Assembly: GCA_037444405.1 (NCBI GenBank)
Contig: JBBIML010000011.1
Coordinates: 1-64,000, forward strand
Length of the DNA: 64,000 bases
DNA from: Armatimonadota bacterium
GTDB lineage: Bacteria > Armatimonadota > Fimbriimonadia > Fimbriimonadales > GBS-DC
Direction of reading: 5' to 3'
In this document: positions 3,270-62,421 of the stretch, piece after piece
Layout: every line of letters begins with the position of its first letter
Numbering within the stretch: the stretch's first letter is position 1
Program-made: the position numbers and the translations under genes
The notes under the pieces: model-generated
Told to the model about the DNA's origin: nothing
Database searches by the model: none
What the model saw: only the letters and a program-made list of their open reading frames with translations

Positions 3270-3527
3270 ATGAGCCAAAGGAACTGGCAATCGCAAAAGC
3301 CCGTTCGGTTGACCAAGCGCGAGATCGAGGTGCTGAGCCTAATCGCGCAGGGACGGTCCTCGCAGGAGGTAGCCGACGCGCTGTTCGTGAGCAAGCGCAC
3401 CGTCGACTTCCATCTGGCGAACATCTACGAGAAGCTCAATGTGAACAATCGGGTGAAGGCGTTCCGTCGGGCTGCCCAGATGGGACTGATCCCTGTGGAG
3501 GTGTTCTTCAGCGACGACGGGGACTGA
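3270..3527 (+). CDS. Stand-alone LuxR-family HTH transcriptional regulator
   Basis: LTKREIEVLSLIAQGRSSQEVADALFVSKRTVDFHLANIYEKL; GGAGGAG before ATG 3270. Confidence 0.9.
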   Translation: MSQRNWQSQKPVRLTKREIEVLSLIAQGRSSQEVADALFVSKRTVDFHLANIYEKLNVNNRVKAFRRAAQMGLIPVEVFFSDDGD

Positions 3528-3743
3528 ACGCGCTCGCTCAATCAGCCACACTAGGCGGACCCCCTCTTCTGTAATGGAGAGGGGGGTCCTGAAGTTTATC
3601 ACTTTTAACATTCCTCTTGCCCCACCCCTTGACAACAAAACGCTCCATCGAGTATCCCTGTCCCACTATGAAAAAACAGCCACACAACCCGGAGACAGCG
3701 ATAACCCGATGAAGCCAACCCAACAACAGCGCGAGCCACTCAG

Positions 3744-56937: not shown

Positions 56938-57672
56938 TCACCATGGTGTGGGCACGCGGCTCGGATCCTCGATCGCCCGTATCTCCGTTTTGATGCCCCA
57001 CTGCTGCAGGTCTTTGACCAGCATTTCGGCTTTTCGGCGTGGCAGGTTGGTCAGAATGACCACGGGCGCACTCTGGAGCAGTTTCTTCACATCGGGTCGG
57101 GTGAGCGTGAGGAACGACTCCAGATGGGCGATGGCTTCTTCTTCCTTCAGGCGTTCCACGCCGAGCAGCACCAGTTCGTAAGGTGTGGGGTCGTCCTGCG
57201 GCAGGGGCATAGAGACCTGTGTTTGTGCGGGGGCGACCACGCTGAACTCGCGCTGGCAATGCTCGCAGATGGCGGTTCGGGCACGGGGTGAGACCTTCTC
57301 GGTGGCGCGGCAGTGGGGGCAGCGCACCGTTACCACCTCCAGCACATGCCCGTTCTCCACCGGCACGAGCCGCCGACAGTGTTCGCAGGTGAAGTCGCTT
57401 TGCGGCGGCGCCACGAACACATTCTCCTTCTGGCAGTAGGGGCAGCTCACGGGATAGGCGGGGATATTGCGCGTTTTATAGAGTGACCAGCCCGCATATG
57501 CCCACGAGCCGAGCCACACCAGCCCGAAACCCCATGAGAAGGAGTGGAACATGCCCCCATAGCGCCAGAACAGCCATGTTAGCAGCAGCATCACCAGCCC
57601 CAGCAAACCATAGATGACGGCTTGCGTGTACTCTTTTTCCACAGCGTCAGAGCGCTTAACTGGCTCTTCCAC
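56938..57672 (-). CDS. Membrane-anchored zinc-ribbon protein with a C-terminal L7/L12-CTD-like domain
   Basis: Two TM helices, four CxxC pairs (CPYC, CEHC, CPHC, CEHC), then VKKLLQSAPVVIL.NL...KAE.L...L; GGGAGG before GTG 57672. Confidence 0.7.
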   Translation of the reverse strand: MEEPVKRSDAVEKEYTQAVIYGLLGLVMLLLTWLFWRYGGMFHSFSWGFGLVWLGSWAYAGWSLYKTRNIPAYPVSCPYCQKENVFVAPPQSDFTCEHCRRLVPVENGHVLEVVTVRCPHCRATEKVSPRARTAICEHCQREFSVVAPAQTQVSMPLPQDDPTPYELVLLGVERLKEEEAIAHLESFLTLTRPDVKKLLQSAPVVILTNLPRRKAEMLVKDLQQWGIKTEIRAIEDPSRVPTPW

Positions 57673-57724
57673 GCTTATCGCCTCCCTGTGGAAAGGGTTC
57701 GACCGACTGCCGCGCGATTCCTGC

Positions 57725-59692
57725 CTATTCCTCCTGACCCTCGTATTTCTCTTTGAGCGCCTGCACGACGGCAGGGTCGGCGAGGGTGGTGGTGTCGCCC
57801 AGCGCACGCCCTTCCGCCACATCGCGCAGCAGGCGACGCATAATCTTGCCACTGCGCGTTTTGGGCAGGTCGGCAGTGAAGATTATATCGTCGGGTCGGG
57901 CAAGCGCGCCGATTTTCGCCACCACATGCTGCTTAAGTTCCTCGCGCAATCGCTCATCGGCGGTGTAGCCCTCTTTGATAATCACGAAGGCAGCCACCGC
58001 CTGGCCCTTGATCTCGTGCGATTTGCCGATGACGGCAGCTTCGGCGACTGCCGGGTGATCCACCAGCGCGCTTTCGATTTCCATCGTGCTGAGGCGATGC
58101 CCCGACACATTGATCACATCGTCCACGCGCCCCAGCAGCCAGAAGTAGCCGTCCTCGTCGCGCTTGGCGCCGTCGCCCGTGAAATAGATGCCGGGGTACC
58201 GGCTCCAGTAGATTTGCTGGAAGCGTTCGGGGTCGCCGTACAGCCCGCGCGTCATCGCCGGCCAGGGGCGCGTCAGCACCAGATAGCCACCCCTGTTCGG
58301 CGGCACCGGGTTGCCCAGCTCATCCAGAATGTCGGGGAACACCCCTGGAAACGGCTTGGTGGCGGAACCGGGCTTGGTCGCCACGATGCCTGGCAGCGGG
58401 GTGATCAGAATCATGCCCGTTTCGGTCTGCCACCAGGTGTCGACAATCGGGCAGCGTCCGCCGCCGATATGCTCGTGGTACCACATCCACGCTTCGGGGT
58501 TGATGAGTTCACCGACGGTGCCCAGCAGGCGCAGACTGCTCAAATCGTGGCGGCGCGGGTACTCTTCGCCCCACTTCATAAAGGCGCGGATGGCAGTCGG
58601 CGCGGTGTACAGAATGTTCACCCGATATTTCTCCACTATCGCCCAGAATCGGTCGCGGTCGGGATAGTCGGGTGCGCCCTCGTAAATCACGCAGGTCACC
58701 CCGTTCGCCAGCGGACCGTACACGATGTAGCTGTGCCCTGTAACCCAGCCCACATCGGCGGTACACCAGAAGATGTCTTCGTCCTTGAGGTCGAAAACCC
58801 ATTTGCTGGTGATGGCGACGCCCACGAGATAGCCGCCTGTGGTGTGCATGATGCCTTTCGGCTTGCCCGTGGAGCCGGAGGTGTAGAGCAGATAGAGCAG
58901 GTCTTCGCTGTCCATCGGCTCTGGCTCGCAGGTGAGCGGCGCGTTCGCCATCAGCTCGTGCCACCAGAGGTCGCGCCCTTCCTGCATCGGCACGGTGTAG
59001 TCGCCACCGATACGCTGATAGACAATCACTTTTTCGATGGAGGGTGTGTTGCGCAGGGCTTCGTCGGCATTGCGCTTGAGCGGCACGATCGAGCCGCGGC
59101 GCCAGCCACCATCGGCGGTGATCAGCACCTTCGCCTGCGCGTCGTTGATGCGGTCAGCGAGGCTCTCCGCGCTGAACCCGCCGAACACCACCGAATGGGG
59201 CGCACCGATTCGCGCACACGCCAGCATTGCAATCACCACTTCGGGGATGAGCGGCAGATAGATACACACACGGTCGCCTTTGCGCACGCCCAGCGCCTTC
59301 AGCACATTGGCAAACTTCTGCACCTCGCGATAGAGGTCGTTGTAGGTCAGCACGCGCTCCTCGCCTGGCTCGCCCTCCCAGATGAGCGCGGCTTTGTTGC
59401 GCCGCCATGTCTTCACATGTCGATCCACGCAGTTGTAGCAGGCGTTCAGCTTGCCGCCGACAAACCACTTCGCATAGGGCGGGTTCCACTCCAGCACCGT
59501 GTGCCATCTCTGATACCAGTCGAGAATCTCGGCGCACTTCGCCCAGAACGCCTCATAGTCGCGCGCCGCCTCTTCATAAATAGCCGCATCGCTGATATTC
59601 GCCTGTCGCACGAACTCTTCCGAAGGCGGGAAGACCCGCTGCTCCTGCAACAACGCCTCAATCGCCATTGTGGTCTGCATCGTCTCCATCAT
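57725..59692 (-). CDS. acs: Acetyl-CoA synthetase (acetate-CoA ligase)
   Basis: [38 protein letters not shown]. Confidence 0.97.
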
Positions 59693-59836
59693 CTCACCTC
59701 ACAGGGGAACGATTCGCCAGCAGGCAGCCCTTTTCCTGCTTTATCTATGCCTCTGGGGGGCGAAACGGGATTTTTCTCCCTCTTGCAGGGAACTCTTGAC
59801 AGAGGTCTGGGGTATAATAGGGGTGAGGTGTTGCAT

Positions 59837-60037
59837 ATGGCAACAAGGAACGCAGTCAAGGAAAAGGTTCGCCTGAACGGCGTCGACTATGAGATCACGC
59901 TGACGCCTGCGACCACGAACGACCCGACCACGCTGAACACGCCGATCACTCCGTCTCAGCCGACCACGCCGCAGGAAGTGGTGCGTCGCGCACCTGCCGT
60001 CACCGAGCTGCCGCGCTGGGAGGACGGTATCGGCTAA
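59837..60037 (+). CDS. 66-aa candidate ubiquitin-like modifier ending in Gly
   Basis: TATAAT at 59813 and GAGGTG SD before ATG 59837; MATRNAVKEKVRLNGVDYEITL...VTELPRWEDGIG*; first gene of an E2/JAB-E1 operon. Confidence 0.75.
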   Translation: MATRNAVKEKVRLNGVDYEITLTPATTNDPTTLNTPITPSQPTTPQEVVRRAPAVTELPRWEDGIG

Positions 60038-60067
60038 GCCCTGGATCGCTGTTGCGGGGATGACACC

Positions 60068-60517
60068 ATGAACGCACGCCTGCAGCGGATCGCCTACGAG
60101 GCGGCGCTTGCTGCGACGCACTACTCGCAGACGAAGCAAGCCTCCTATGACGACGAGGACGGGGAGTGGGTCATTATTCACGACTTTCCGCTCCCCCGCG
60201 GCTACAACTACACCACCACCGATGTGCTGATTCTGCTGCCGCGTCACTACCCCCAGACCCCGCCTGACTGGTTCTATGTGGATTACAACCTGCGCTTAGC
60301 GAACGGGCAGCGTCCGCCCCATGTGTTCTATGGCGACACCTCCTATGACCCCAATCGGGGTCAGTTCCGCGAGGCGCCGCCCGCGCTGAAGGGCTGGACC
60401 GCCTGCTGCCTGCACATCCATGAGTGGCGCCCTGCAGCGAACCCGCTGGCAGGGCATTCCCTGCTGAGTGTGTGCGAACTCATTAAGAAGGCGTTTGAAC
60501 GCTGGCGACGCGGGTAG
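60068..60517 (+). CDS. Prokaryotic E2/UBC-fold conjugating enzyme (resembles Prok-E2 family E)
   Basis: WVIIHDFPLPRGY...VLILLPRHYPQTPPDWFY...W..CCLH...WRP pattern. Confidence 0.8.
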   Translation: MNARLQRIAYEAALAATHYSQTKQASYDDEDGEWVIIHDFPLPRGYNYTTTDVLILLPRHYPQTPPDWFYVDYNLRLANGQRPPHVFYGDTSYDPNRGQFREAPPALKGWTACCLHIHEWRPAANPLAGHSLLSVCELIKKAFERWRRG

Positions 60518-60520
60518 GGA

Positions 60521-62008
60521 GTGGAGCCGTTGCAAGCTCTGTGTGGCGAGGTACGCATCACGCGCACGCTCTGGACGCGCCTCACCGAAGCGCTTCTCGC
60601 TGACCGCTGTGTCGAGACGAAGTGCTTCATGCTGTGTCGCACGCTGGAGCTGCCAGGGCGAGCGGTGTTCCTTGTGCGCGAGCTGGTGGAGGTGCCGCCG
60701 GACGCCTACGAGGAGCGCTCCGCCAACCGCGTCATCACCCGCCCGGAGTTCGTGCATACCTTGCTGACGCGCTGCGAAGCGGAGGGCTGGTCGCTGCTGG
60801 AAGCCCACTCCCATCCGTGGACGCCCCGACCGCGCTTCTCCTCGATTGACCACCAGAGCGACTATCAGAAGTTCCGCGTCACCGAGGTGCTATCGCCCCC
60901 GTTTCGGCACGGCACGCTGGTGTTCGGCTCCGACATGGGCTTCGACGGGCACATGTGGGACTATGCGAACCAGCAGGTGGTGCCGATTGAGCGTATTCGC
61001 ATCGTGGGGCTGCCCTGCGAGACGCGCTATGCGACCGACCTCGCGCCGCCGGAGCTGGACAAAGCCCAGCGGGAGCTGTACGACCGTCAGGTACGCGCGC
61101 TCGGTGTGGAGGGTCAGGCGCTGTTGAGCCACCTGCGCGTGGCGATTGTGGGCGCGGGCGGGCTTGGCTCCCAGATTGCGCAGGCGCTCACCCTGCTCGG
61201 CGTCGGACATCTGACGCTGATCGACCCCGACCGACTGGAGCTGAGCAATCTGAACCGCATCGTGGGCGCCACCTGGTATCGCGCGATTCGGCGATGGCGC
61301 AAGGTGAAAGCGCTCGCGCTCTGGTTCAACCGCGCTCGCAGCCCCGAATGGCGCACCATCACGCCCCTGCCCGCCGATGCGCGCTCGCCTGAACTGCTGA
61401 CCACCCTGCTCGAAAGCGATATGCTGATCGGCGCGGTGGACAGCGCGACCGTGCGCCAGTATCTGAACCTGCTGGCGGTGTGCGCATTAATCCCCTATCT
61501 GGACGCGGGTGTCGGTATACGCGCGGAGGCGGGACGCATCGCGCAGGGCGGCGGACAGGTGCAGCTCATCCTGCCGGGCGAGACCGCCTGCCTCAGCTGT
61601 GTCGGGCATCTGGTGCGCCAGAGCGTGGAAGAACAGCTCACCCCTGAACAGCGTGCCATGTCGATCCAGCATGGCTACATTCAGGGCGAGCGGATACCCA
61701 ACCCGCAGGTGGTGTTCCTGAACGGCGTCGTGGCAAACCTGCTGGTGTGGGAGTTCGTGAAGCTGACCACGGGTTGCCTGCCCGCGCAGCCGTATGTCTA
61801 TTACGACCTGGTGGCACAGCAGGCGTTCCCTGCCGAAGCCGAACGCAATCCGAACTGCTTCCTCTGTTCCTATGAGGCAGGTAGCCTGCTGGCAACCGGG
61901 CTGGACGGCATCAATGGCTACCTGAAGCCGCCCCGCCAGAAGGCGCCGCCCGTGCCACGATCCCGAAGCGAATCTCCATCCCCTGACACGGAGGAGAGAC
62001 CCGCATGA
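60521..62008 (+). CDS. JAB/JAMM peptidase - E1 (ThiF-family adenylyltransferase) fusion
   Basis: Glu32 plus HSH-x8-S-x2-D (96-110); YDRQ, VGAGGLGS, IDPD..E.SNLNR, AVDS, two CxxC pairs (357/360, 446/449). Confidence 0.9.
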   Translation: MEPLQALCGEVRITRTLWTRLTEALLADRCVETKCFMLCRTLELPGRAVFLVRELVEVPPDAYEERSANRVITRPEFVHTLLTRCEAEGWSLLEAHSHPWTPRPRFSSIDHQSDYQKFRVTEVLSPPFRHGTLVFGSDMGFDGHMWDYANQQVVPIERIRIVGLPCETRYATDLAPPELDKAQRELYDRQVRALGVEGQALLSHLRVAIVGAGGLGSQIAQALTLLGVGHLTLIDPDRLELSNLNRIVGATWYRAIRRWRKVKALALWFNRARSPEWRTITPLPADARSPELLTTLLESDMLIGAVDSATVRQYLNLLAVCALIPYLDAGVGIRAEAGRIAQGGGQVQLILPGETACLSCVGHLVRQSVEEQLTPEQRAMSIQHGYIQGERIPNPQVVFLNGVVANLLVWEFVKLTTGCLPAQPYVYYDLVAQQAFPAEAERNPNCFLCSYEAGSLLATGLDGINGYLKPPRQKAPPVPRSRSESPSPDTEERPA

Positions 62009-62421
62009 AGCCAATCCCGGAAAATCGTCGTTGGGTCGAGCAGGGCAAACCGAATCAGTCGCCTCAGCGCATATCGAACGAGTCGATTATAGAGATCGAT
62101 CTTCTTGCTGATGAACTGCTCGCCCTGTTGACGGAGCAACAGGGGCAGGTGCTGGAAGCGGGTGCGCCACTGCTCTTTGCTCGCTATGAGGGCACATGTC
62201 CTGCCTGTCTGCAACCGATTCAACGGGGCGCGCTGATCACGCGCCACGCTCGAAGCGGACGCTGGGTGCATGTGGACTGCCTGAACGCTCCCGTTCAGCA
62301 CAGCATTCTTGCCCGCTATGAAGGCTTCTGCCGCATCTGCCGCCAGACGATCGCCGTCGGCGAACCCATCACCCGCGACACCAACCGCGGCTGGGTTCAC
62401 CTGCGCTGTGTGCAGGGTTGA
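62005..62421 (+). CDS. Tandem zinc-finger protein (two C-x2-C-x19/20-H-x2-C units)
   Basis: ARYEGTCPAC...WVHVDC and ARYEGFCRIC...WVHLRC; ATGA overlap with the JAB-E1 stop. Confidence 0.75.
   Translation: MKPIPENRRWVEQGKPNQSPQRISNESIIEIDLLADELLALLTEQQGQVLEAGAPLLFARYEGTCPACLQPIQRGALITRHARSGRWVHVDCLNAPVQHSILARYEGFCRICRQTIAVGEPITRDTNRGWVHLRCVQG

Follow-up and report, generated by a model that had tools for sequence, protein, structure and literature searches.

A putative Bub-related protein-tagging operon that pairs a tyrosine-type E1 with a cysteine-type E2 in a thermophilic Armatimonadota family

The window (the whole 64,000-nt stretch of DNA analysed) carries a four-gene operon (positions 59837-62421, + strand) which, judged from its sequence, is of the ubiquitin-like protein-tagging type and related to the cysteine-free Bub systems. 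The predicted E1 has the Bub-type tyrosine, but the predicted E2 has a cysteine at the position of the Bub E2 serine. This Tyr-E1/Cys-E2 pairing is a common state of the family and not an oddity of the window's operon; it is common in nature, yet unstudied. We see about an even chance that the operon is a Bub-like (6E-type) conjugation system running a mixed oxyester/thioester relay.

Operon layout and genomic setting

All four genes lie on the + strand, in the order candidate modifier, E2, JAB-E1 fusion, and zinc-finger protein. The surroundings of the operon are housekeeping chromosomal DNA, and nearly all members of one bacterial family, of thermophilic Armatimonadota, carry the cassette. 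At the operon we saw neither CapW nor CapH/CapP regulators, and a promoter and terminator scan of the + strand returned nothing usable.

The reference for systems of this kind is type I Bub (formerly 6E.1 or DUF6527 operons), with BubAB, BubCD, and BubE, from Citrobacter sp. RHBSTW-00271 (PDB 9ea4, 9eae, and 9eav; Ye, Gong, Chambers, Corbett, bioRxiv 10.1101/2024.11.21.623953), of which we draw on the available text. DUF6527/BubE (PF20137) had zero matches in the window's genome (98.9% complete) and did match in the control genome, Caulobacter. Zero matches were also obtained there for PF14452 (Multi_ubiq), but the control genomes likewise gave zero. Two Cys-type E2 alignments, run against viral_contigs, yielded zero relatives, and the sole plasmid match in a tblastn search with the Cys-type E2 P0042 was the known Ser-type Pseudanabaena Bub operon. 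Our search of the open literature, with subscription journals and the supplementary alignments of the Bub preprint lying beyond its reach, brought up only two preprints of the Corbett laboratory, both from 2024, and no description of Cys-type Bub E2s.

Putative active-site residues of the E1 and the E2

The JAB-E1 fusion is encoded by a single ORF (60521-62008, 495 aa) with the following features.

60521..61030, + strand: JAB/JAMM peptidase domain of JAB-E1, residues ~1-170, aligning with the BubCD peptidase domain
61043..62008, + strand: E1 adenylation domain, residues ~175-470, plus C-terminal tail; ThiF PF00899 at 2.9e-36
61151-61168, + strand: G-x-G-G-x-G motif of the E1, residues 211-216
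61589-61600, + strand: E1 zinc ligands C357/C360
61601-61711, + strand: E1 crossover loop, residues 361-397
61676-61678, + strand: E1 Tyr386, codon TAC
61856-61867, + strand: E1 zinc ligands C446/C449

A phmmer search against the PDB aligned residues 12-425 of the 495 with BubCD (9ea4_A; E 9.6e-24), and the same alignment places G-Y386-I opposite the G-Y-I of BubCD Y370. Read from the DNA, the E1 continues after C357/C360 as VGHLVRQSVEEQLTPEQRAMSIQHGYIQGERIPNPQV, with zero Cys and with Tyr386 inside; loop 361-397 holds no Cys and no inserted domain. Gly385-Tyr386 is invariant in 23/23 full-length E1s, and a Cys between C360 and L400 occurs in 0/23. PADLOC produced generic E1-E2 matches only, and the only NCBIfam matches were sub-threshold ones to ThiF/MoeB. 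In the peptidase domain the JAB motif residues are Glu32, His96, His98, Ser107, and Asp110, with E32, H96/H98, and D110 corresponding to BubCD E28, H91/H93, and D104 (BubCD numbering from the preprint); across E1 alignment A8, S107 is invariant and the other four are nearly so. The Pfam Prok-JAB model scored 13.5 bits on this domain, under its cut-off.

These comparisons leave a canonical all-thioester cascade through some other E1 cysteine (C419, C85, or a zinc-site Cys), with Tyr386 merely incidental, scarcely credible. The sequence-only reading had pointed to the cysteine of TTGCLP, C419, as the possible alternative thioester site. This residue is kept in 22/23 near relatives, but L036 has F there, and a second group of Cys-type systems, the soil clade, shows V, L, A, E, T, or G. 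C85 does recur across clades (22/23 E1s), but it belongs to the peptidase domain, is kept just as well where the partner E2 is of the Ser type (L031, L032), and stands opposite an Ala in BubCD. The sole cysteines invariant across the 23 E1s are the four ligands of the usual C-x2-C ... C-x2-C zinc site, and Tyr386 itself is invariant.

The E2 gene and its putative active-site positions are as follows.

60068..60517, + strand: E2-like protein of the Prok-E2_E / BubB family, 149 aa; PF14462 match and relative of Citrobacter BubB
60266-60268, + strand: putative active-site Asp67 of the E2, aligning with BubB D299
60404-60406 and 60407-60409, + strand: C113-C114 of the E2, codons TGC TGC
60410-60412, + strand: L115 of the E2, codon CTG
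60413-60415, + strand: H116 of the E2, codon CAC, aligning with BubB H335

The PF14462 (Prok-E2_E) match was at 4.2e-14 and 52.8 bits (cut-off 25), its aligned part being residues 29-85 only, and the nearest solved relative is Citrobacter BubB (9eae_C). Read from the DNA, the motif context is K-G-W-T-A-C-C-L-H-I-H-E-W-R-P. In an alignment made via a profile of Ser-type relatives, C114, H116, and D67 correspond to BubB S333, H335, and D299, with W-S333-R-H335 opposite C114-L-H116. According to the available text of the Bub preprint (10.1101/2024.11.21.623953), this nucleophile position is the structural equivalent of E2 catalytic cysteines; Cys114, a putative catalytic residue by alignment, occupies it. 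The C-C-[L/M]-H motif is kept in 30/30 related loci (E2 identity 68-99%).

The coordinates and residue numbers given for both proteins in the sequence-only reading were all correct when the codons were read directly from the DNA, and its two core observations, a loop with Gly-Tyr386 and without Cys and a Cys-Cys-Leu-His motif in the E2, are real and, given their conservation, go beyond chance. The positional equivalence that it wanted confirmed holds for Tyr386 (BubCD Y370) and for Cys114 (BubB S333), and both residues are conserved. It had also held that the family usually reads WSRH at this site; Citrobacter BubB does, but among the best 150 of 875 hits the prevailing reading of the Ser relatives is F-S-[W/F/Y]-H, and relatives with Cys are the more numerous.

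Either C113 or C114 may serve as the nucleophile, and the sequence does not choose between them. C113 is a possible nucleophile because relatives with C113-S114 occur (P0034, L070), indicating that C113 can persist when 114 is Ser; it is also as invariant as C114 in the 30/30 loci. Against a relay in which C113 is the acceptor, or in which a C113-C114 disulfide acts as a redox off-switch for the E2, BubB S333 lies opposite 114, not 113, and among the best 150 of 875 hits position 113 varies in the wider family (G, A, F, Y, or L) while 138 of the 141 alignable representatives have either Cys or Ser at 114. We regard both versions as improbable.

The balance between the two residues at position 114 was followed in the same 141 representatives (alignable among the best 150 of 875 hits of a profile dominated by Cys-type sequences), 82 of which have Cys and 56 Ser, a ratio that an unbiased profile might shift. 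On a tree of the best 150 of 875 hits, position 114 switched at least 4 times and most parsimoniously 11, against 44 for shuffled labels; an interchangeable nucleophile would be expected to switch in this repeated way. A Cys-type E2 adjoins a Tyr-type, loop-Cys-free JAB-E1 fusion in at least five lineages. The arrangement is found for 20/20 full-length E1s of the soil clade and in L036, L073, and L075; metagenome sampling of Cys-type relatives covered one clade (alignment A5). Within the subfamily with the WEDG modifier, the E2 is of the Ser type in L031, L032, and L070 and of the Cys type in the window's family, and the E1 loops are nearly identical despite this difference. The E1 Tyr is kept whether the partner E2 has Ser or Cys. 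The mixed Tyr-E1/Cys-E2 make-up proposed in the sequence-only reading is thus real at the sequence level but not peculiar to the window.

In raw counts among the best 150 of 875 hits, Asp67 accompanies Ser in 43/56 and Cys in 25/86 sequences. A Ser-Asp67 association was discarded, the independent contrasts being too few (4 pairs on supported branches, median p 1).

Candidate modifier, zinc-finger protein, and proposed relay

The first gene of the operon encodes a 66-residue protein which, from its invariant C-terminal Gly and variable tail, is a candidate modifier.

59837..60037, + strand: candidate pro-modifier, 66 aa, directly 5′ of the E2 gene in 31/36 loci
60026-60028, + strand: Gly64 of the modifier (end of ...LPRWEDG), invariant

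Its layout runs from a predicted N-terminal beta-hairpin through a Pro/Thr-rich linker to an invariant L-P-x-W-[E/Q]-D-G and the tail Ile65-Gly66. Alignment A2 shows no variation at P59, W61, D63, or G64, and a tail of 1-4 variable residues after the Gly; orthologues in L032, L070, and P0235 have no tail and end exactly in WEDG. The gene is separate from that of the E2, its product has no recognisable beta-grasp, and it matched no Pfam, NCBIfam, or PADLOC family. An AF2 model, of low confidence (pLDDT 69.8, pTM 0.25), contains strands 7-13 and 16-22 only. The visual impression of a degenerate Ubl was unsupported, with an hhalign probability of 0.2% against the beta-grasp Ubls of the soil (sister) clade.

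A small protein of this kind, together with the presence of MccB and ThiF among the PDB relatives of the E1, might also be taken to mean that the operon performs no conjugation, the E2-like protein being a noncatalytic adaptor and the E1 activating the peptide for sulfur transfer or for an MccB-type peptide-natural-product modification. This would accord with Iyer et al. 2006, the available text of which called the 6e E2-like domains inactive and proposed them as noncatalytic adaptors. We consider it very unlikely. In the available text of the Bub preprint (10.1101/2024.11.21.623953), the BubB S333A/H335A mutant is dead, so the homologous E2 is catalytic; moreover, the E2s conserve the positions of Asp, Cys/Ser, and His, and the candidate modifier has, as is typical of Ubls, a C-terminal Gly that never varies and variable tails for trimming, next to an intact JAB peptidase.

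The last gene is kept 3′ of the E1 and encodes a zinc-finger protein.

62005..62421, + strand: zinc-finger protein, 138 aa, its start overlapping the E1 stop codon
62005-62034, + strand: N-terminal motif M-K-P-I-P-E-N-R-R-W
62197-62280, + strand: zinc-finger repeat 1, residues 65-92, C-x2-C-x19-20-H-x2-C
62329-62409, + strand: zinc-finger repeat 2, residues 109-135, C-x2-C-x19-20-H-x2-C

A variable linker separates the N-terminal motif from the repeats. The P-I-P-x-N-[R/K/Q] N-terminus recurs in L031 and, joined to unrelated C-terminal domains, in a distant clade of Cys-type operons, and paralogues with one zinc-finger repeat are present in L028 and L030. The protein is a candidate substrate or E3-like adaptor. 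Its identification as a RING finger E3 was rejected, as RING-type Pfam models scored under their cut-offs (zf-ANAPC11, 23.0 versus 25; zf-RING_2, 13.9 versus 27.3) and the ligands form tandem C-x2-C ... H-x2-C repeats. DUF2175, likewise a RING-type hit, scored 25.0 against a cut-off of 25.1.

In the relay that we propose, the JAB domain would first cut off the few residues that follow Gly64 (...LPRWEDG) in the 66-residue pro-modifier, and the E1 adenylation domain would then adenylate the exposed Gly64. On the flexible crossover loop, Tyr386 would next take over the modifier in aryl-oxyester linkage, the role proposed for Tyr370 in BubCD. The loop would swing to the bound E2, where Cys114, aided by His116 and Asp67, would take the modifier as a thioester; in the counterpart of this step in published Bub, as the available text of the preprint has it (10.1101/2024.11.21.623953), a Ser is the acceptor and an oxyester the product. 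The E2 would finally hand the modifier to a target amine; the target may be the PIPxNRRW zinc-finger protein itself or proteins that it recruits. We infer the chemical steps, the cleavage site, and the target alike, and from homology alone would expect Y386, G64, and C114 to come close to one another.

Thiolates are, by general chemistry, good nucleophiles for acyl-adenylates. The E2 Cys might thus attack the modifier-adenylate directly, with no covalent E1 intermediate and with Tyr386 as a noncovalent helper (positioning, gating, or acid-base), an alternative that seems unlikely to us but carries appreciable weight. Direct attack is possible because a BubA-BubCD adduct still forms with Y370F, and the Tyr-linked Bub intermediate is untrapped, as far as the available text of the Bub preprint goes (10.1101/2024.11.21.623953). 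Retention of the Tyr beside either Ser or Cys E2s fits either role of this residue. Less easily accommodated are further reports in the same text: Y370F kills conjugation and product formation in both Bub types; predicted models put the Tyr hydroxyl 3.7 Å from the AMP phosphate; and in the crystal structure BubCD Y370 sits against BubB D299, S333, and H335, such that the E2 active site faces the loop Tyr and not the adenylation pocket. Transfer from a Tyr oxyester to a Cys thioester is plausible for the window's enzymes as read from their sequences.

Significance and comparison with known systems

The occurrence of the Tyr-E1/Cys-E2 pairing in many lineages contrasts with the sole experimental account, which in its available text (10.1101/2024.11.21.623953) describes Bub as working "entirely through oxyester" intermediates, with an invariant E2 Ser, in a set collected as DUF6527-containing operons only. 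The reported invariance of the Ser follows, in our view, from the sampling of DUF6527-containing operons alone.

A wider reading, possible but on the doubtful side, is that a large, unstudied, BubE-less branch of the Bub/6E systems runs a hybrid relay from an E1 Tyr oxyester to an E2 Cys thioester and may stand as an intermediate in evolution between canonical ubiquitination, with thioesters throughout, and Bub, with oxyesters throughout. Under the same tentative reading, the thermophilic Armatimonadota family would possess a near-core, chromosomally fixed tagging system, with an extended non-beta-grasp modifier of ~60 residues (...LPRWEDG) and a dedicated zinc-finger partner recognised via its N-terminal PIPxNRRW peptide. 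If the relay works as we propose, aryl-oxyester and thioester chemistry would for the first time be combined in one ubiquitin-like cascade, natural Ser/Cys pairs would be available for exploring why cysteine was abandoned in Bub, and the system would bear on the order in which cysteine was lost or gained in the E1 and the E2. The mini-modifier and the PIPxNRRW protein offer handles for finding the targets of Bub-type systems.

Several features are common to the window's operon and type I Bub. In both, one protein joins a JAB peptidase to a single E1 adenylation domain whose crossover loop bears a Tyr but lacks Cys. Both E2s have the Prok-E2_E fold and place the helper residues, Asp and x-His, at corresponding positions. 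The genes run modifier, E2, JAB-E1 in each, and trimming would be needed to expose the C-terminal Gly of the modifier. The window's operon departs from type I Bub and its "invariant" Ser in the Cys114 (Cys-Cys) at the E2 nucleophile position in 30/30 loci, and in a genome without BubE/DUF6527, where the zinc-finger protein follows the E1 instead. In Bub, a Ubl with 1-3 beta-grasp domains serves as modifier and in most cases forms one protein with the E2, whereas the candidate here is a separate 66-aa non-beta-grasp protein. The window's E1 has a C-x2-C ... C-x2-C zinc site and BubCD does not. The setting differs as well, being housekeeping and chromosomal, near-universal in one family, and free of CapW and CapH/CapP.

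The Bil system (bacterial ISG15-like, BilA-D) is described in the available text of Chambers et al. (bioRxiv 10.1101/2023.09.26.559546). Likenesses to it are an E2 Cys with an adjacent His (here putative catalytic residues), a JAB peptidase that preprocesses the modifier (here proposed), and, in the E1, four Cys in a zinc-site arrangement. Unlike the Bil E1 in that text, the window's E1 is a single adenylation domain without an insertion and has a Tyr instead of the Cys; the E2s of the two systems come from different families, that of Bil having the motif CEHH. More generally, unlike in canonical thioester cascades of the eukaryotic type and Bil, the E1 crossover loop is free of Cys and carries no Cys-bearing inserted domain.

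Pup is a conjugated non-beta-grasp modifier, ligated by a glutamine-synthetase-like enzyme rather than by an E1/E2 pair. In type II CBASS, named in the discussion of the Bub preprint (available text; 10.1101/2024.11.21.623953), Cap2 conjugates the C-terminus of the CD-NTase, a non-beta-grasp moiety. Unlike the window's E1, Cap2 uses Cys thioesters, and neither Cap2 nor the Pup system has a Tyr-bearing E1. What the window's operon would have in common with both is a largely extended or disordered polypeptide or protein tail as the conjugated moiety (here a candidate), and with CBASS in particular an E1/E2-type enzyme acting on a non-Ubl, again as a candidate.

Operon organization and equivalence to Bub residues

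The operon comprises four genes arranged head to tail on the + strand, flanked by acetyl-CoA synthetase (divergent) and amidohydrolase genes:

59837-60037, + strand, candidate modifier ORF (66 codons; no Pfam match above threshold)
60068-60517, + strand, E2 ORF (149 codons; Pfam Prok-E2_E PF14462, 4.2e-14, 52.8 bits, cut-off 25)
60521-62008, + strand, JAB-E1 ORF (495 codons; Pfam ThiF 2.9e-36, weak N-terminal Prok-JAB signal)
62005-62421, + strand, zinc-finger ORF (138 codons; no Pfam match above threshold)

The JAB-E1 gene starts 3 bases past the E2 stop codon, and the ATG of the fourth ORF overlaps the JAB-E1 stop. Perfect TTGACA (59796-59801) and TATAAT (59813-59818) hexamers lie 5′ of the modifier gene with a spacing of only 11 bases, and were uncounted by the promoter scan. 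Elsewhere in the window, a 304-aa ORF on the - strand (56938-57852) carries several C-x2-C pairs (weak zinc-ribbon matches), a hydrophobic stretch and weak similarity to the C-terminal part of ribosomal L7/L12; it is kept in the scanned locus L001.

A sequence-only reading had proposed a mixed chemistry for this system, with Tyr386 and no loop Cys in the E1 and Cys-Cys-Leu-His in the E2. The codons that it assigned are right: TGC TGC CTG CAC at 60404-60415 encode C113, C114, L115 and H116 of the E2, and TAC at 61676-61678 encodes Y386 of the E1, downstream of C357-x2-C360 and a Cys-free stretch. According to the preprint on the ubiquitin-like Bub pathway of Citrobacter, the crossover loop of BubCD (the JAB-E1) has no cysteine and Tyr370 as its sole invariant residue, and Y370F abolished conjugation; the E2, BubB, is described there as having an “invariant serine” (S333) plus H335 and D299, with a dead S333A/H335A mutant, and in the crystal structures Y370 packs on D299, S333 and H335 (Ye et al., bioRxiv 10.1101/2024.11.21.623953).

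The closest solved structure to the window E1 is BubCD itself (9ea4_A, E = 9.6e-24; window residues 12-425 versus chain residues 10-408). In this alignment, window H-G-Y386-I-Q-G falls on BubCD R-G-Y-I-T-G, whose tyrosine, chain residue 372, corresponds to Y370 because the chain has 458 residues versus 456 for the protein in the preprint. The peptidase residues E32, H96/H98 and D110 align on BubCD E28, H91/H93 and D104. For the window E2, solved structures offer no relatives other than BubB chains (9eae_C). Since the direct alignment ended short of the active site, a profile (A4) was built from 32 E2 relatives, mainly Ser type, i.e., with serine aligned with window Cys114. The profile covered the BubB active site at E 8.7e-13 and placed chain residues D70, S104 and H106, which are D299, S333 and H335 if the chain begins at residue 230, on the columns holding window D67, C114 and H116. 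Positional equivalence to the Bub catalytic residues, Y386 included, is therefore confirmed by sequence.

Conservation of the E1 tyrosine and the E2 cysteine

A scan of genome contigs yielded 36 loci. The E2 motif W-T-[A/G]-C-C-[L/M]-H was found in 30 of them, all from Fimbriimonadales/Armatimonadota MAGs (68-99% E2 identity), the remaining motifs being G-S-L-H (L031, L032), F-S-W-H (L033-L035) and L-C-L-H (L036). With the window E1, the 28 E1s recovered gave 29 aligned rows, of which the 23 at full length all have Tyr at position 386; the shorter E1s of L033-L035, which have no JAB domain, likewise read G-Y, and the segment between C360 and L400 is free of Cys in every aligned E1. When a wider set of 23 E1s, drawn from three clades, was aligned (A8), the only invariant cysteines were C357, C360, C446 and C449, the same C-x2-C ... 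C-x2-C zinc arrangement as reported for the Bil E1. C85, which lies in the JAB domain, is kept in 22 of the 23, partners of Ser-type E2s included. C419 (in TTGCLP), which the sequence-only reading had named as a possible alternative E1 cysteine, is found in 13 of these 23 E1s and is unconserved in a distant Cys-type clade from soil. One JAB-E1 (L029, 1037-2548) has E-A-D-G-Y-P-Q without the peptidase H-x-H zinc motif, although its E1 part and Tyr are intact, and this genome may be able to do without the peptidase.

Cysteine at E2 position 114 is not unusual within the family. Searching 1.84 billion cluster representatives with a profile yielded 875 matches at E <= 1e-3. Among the best 150 of these 875, 141 were alignable at this position (Cys in 82, Ser in 56, His in 2 and Val in 1), counts that come from a Cys-dominated query profile and cover these 150 but not the 725 weaker matches; in a Pfam check on a sample of 16 representatives, 15 were Prok-E2_E. 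A tree of 142 sequences, from which columns 113-116 were left out, required 11 Cys/Ser changes, at least 4 of them on well-supported branches, versus an average of 44 with shuffled labels. The window clade lies within a supported 13-member group (9 Cys, 4 Ser), and a large clade of 35 Ser-type sequences (D ... F-S-[W/F/Y]-H) corresponds to the classical Bub type, the remaining tree being mainly Cys. The “invariant serine” of the literature appears to be a sampling effect, the preprint having drawn its set from operons with DUF6527. A term search of the whole Table S1 file, the preprint's operon list, found no Armatimonadota names, and no description of Cys-type Bub E2s was found in a literature search with most subscription journals and the preprint's supplementary figures outside its range.

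In every case reached, the E1 partner of a Cys-type E2 was of the Tyr type. A metagenome scan with the soil clade (E2 G-W-G-H-F-C-[I/V]-H) gave 32 loci, 28 with a JAB-E1 after the E2, and all 20 full-length JAB-E1s have H-G-Y and a Cys-free loop. The L-C-L-H locus L036, from Hydrogenedentota, has a Cys-free I-G-Y loop. Ten further Armatimonadota loci were examined. Tyr-type E1 loops with no Cys accompany a Ubl-E2 fusion with G-W-A-W-F-C-I-H (L073), an E2 with G-Y-G-W-F-C-L-H (L075) and one with W-Y-C-V-L (L074), while L077-L079 are classical W-S-R-H systems. Another of the ten (L076, 3929-5850) has a separate JAB gene, an F-S-W-E E2 without His, and an E1 crossover loop containing both Cys and Tyr, the Cys six residues ahead, and may represent one more intermediate stage in this chemistry.

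Candidate modifier, fourth protein and second cassettes

The 66-residue candidate modifier ORF is directly 5′ of the E2 in 31 of the 36 loci. L-P-x-W-[E/Q]-D-G is invariant in the modifier alignment and is followed by 1 to 4 variable residues; orthologues in L032, L070 and P0235 (a cluster of the modifier family) stop exactly at WEDG. An invariant Gly with variable or absent tails is characteristic of modifier precursors that are trimmed back to a C-terminal Gly. The family comprises 59 clusters and extends to Thermoflexus (Chloroflexota); clusters P0236-P0242, from Thermoflexus and unnamed metagenome proteins, end in R-V-P-A-V-x-x-L-P-R-W-E-D-G plus 0 to 3 residues. An AF2 model, however, contained no more than a beta-hairpin (residues 7-22) and then extended chain (pLDDT 69.8, pTM 0.25), and the modifier profile showed no similarity to that of the true Ubls of the soil clade, which have ~70 residues and end in P-F-T-Y-G. 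The L022 modifier gene (3409-3609) has an in-frame stop after ~13 codons, reflecting a sequencing error or else a damaged gene copy.

The fourth protein begins M-K-P-I-P-E-N-R-R-W and has two C-x2-C-x19-20-H-x2-C repeats. By pattern search, a P-I-P-x-N-[R/K/Q] start motif directly follows the E1 in 21 of 30 close loci; it is visible by alignment in L017 and L021, and most other close loci end early or are E1-less second copies. Among the 20 soil-clade loci whose E1 is full length, 14 also have the motif; the proteins there have unrelated C-terminal parts, some of them with a membrane helix. Across distant clades, post-E1 proteins have M-x(1-3)-P-I-P-x-N-[R/K/Q] in common at the N terminus and vary in their C-terminal domains (zinc fingers, membrane helix, long low-complexity regions), and at some loci two such genes stand in tandem. 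The motif resembles a peptide that docks on, or is recognized by, the conjugation machinery.

Sites of the P-I-P-x-N-[R/K/Q] start motif
Window: 62005-62034
L002: 7016 and 7485
L003: 3499 and 3986
L039: 6920 and 7543
L031: 6895

Within the window's GTDB family, 25 of 29 genomes (16 of the 19 high-quality ones) have the cassette, which is flanked by ordinary metabolic genes that vary by genome; in a phylum sample, only 15 of 401 genomes gave matches, mostly more distant relatives. Six of the 29 family genomes have a second E2 copy. E1-less second cassettes consist of modifier and E2 with (L017, L021, L028, L030) or without (L018, L019, L027) the zinc-finger gene, and occur in genomes also having a full cassette. 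Their E2s retain C-C-L-H, and they would therefore need the main cassette's E1 in trans.

Proposed mechanism and relationship to Bub

The best-supported reading of these sequences follows the Bub scheme, with Tyr386 as carrier, in all but one point, a Cys thioester on the E2. Alongside the demonstrated homology, residue equivalences and recurrent Tyr/Cys pairing, we infer each chemical step as follows. The JAB domain would trim the modifier to Gly64 and the E1 would adenylate the trimmed form; Tyr386 in the crossover loop would then carry it to the E2, where Cys114, with His116 and Asp67, would take it as a thioester (sequence alone allows C113 or C114) and hand it to an amine. Since aryl esters are activated, passing the modifier from one to a thiolate makes chemical sense. 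E1 loops are almost identical between Ser-type and Cys-type members of the WEDG subfamily (with small modifiers of the W-E-D-G type), suggesting that a single E1 chemistry serves either nucleophile. In the main rival to a tyrosyl carrier, Cys114 would attack the adenylate directly and Tyr386 would be a helper, which is consistent with the Bub preprint's own account that the Tyr adduct was not trapped (bioRxiv 10.1101/2024.11.21.623953).

The window operon misses three defining features of the published Bub system. The Bub E2 uses a serine, whereas the window E2 has Cys114; Bub includes BubE, a DUF6527 protein, whereas the window genome (98.9% complete) has no PF20137 match, a control genome being matched; and the Bub modifier is a beta-grasp Ubl, whereas that of the window is not recognizable as such. 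The operon is best described as a variant of the Bub kind, in a large unstudied branch where the “mixed” make-up is the rule.
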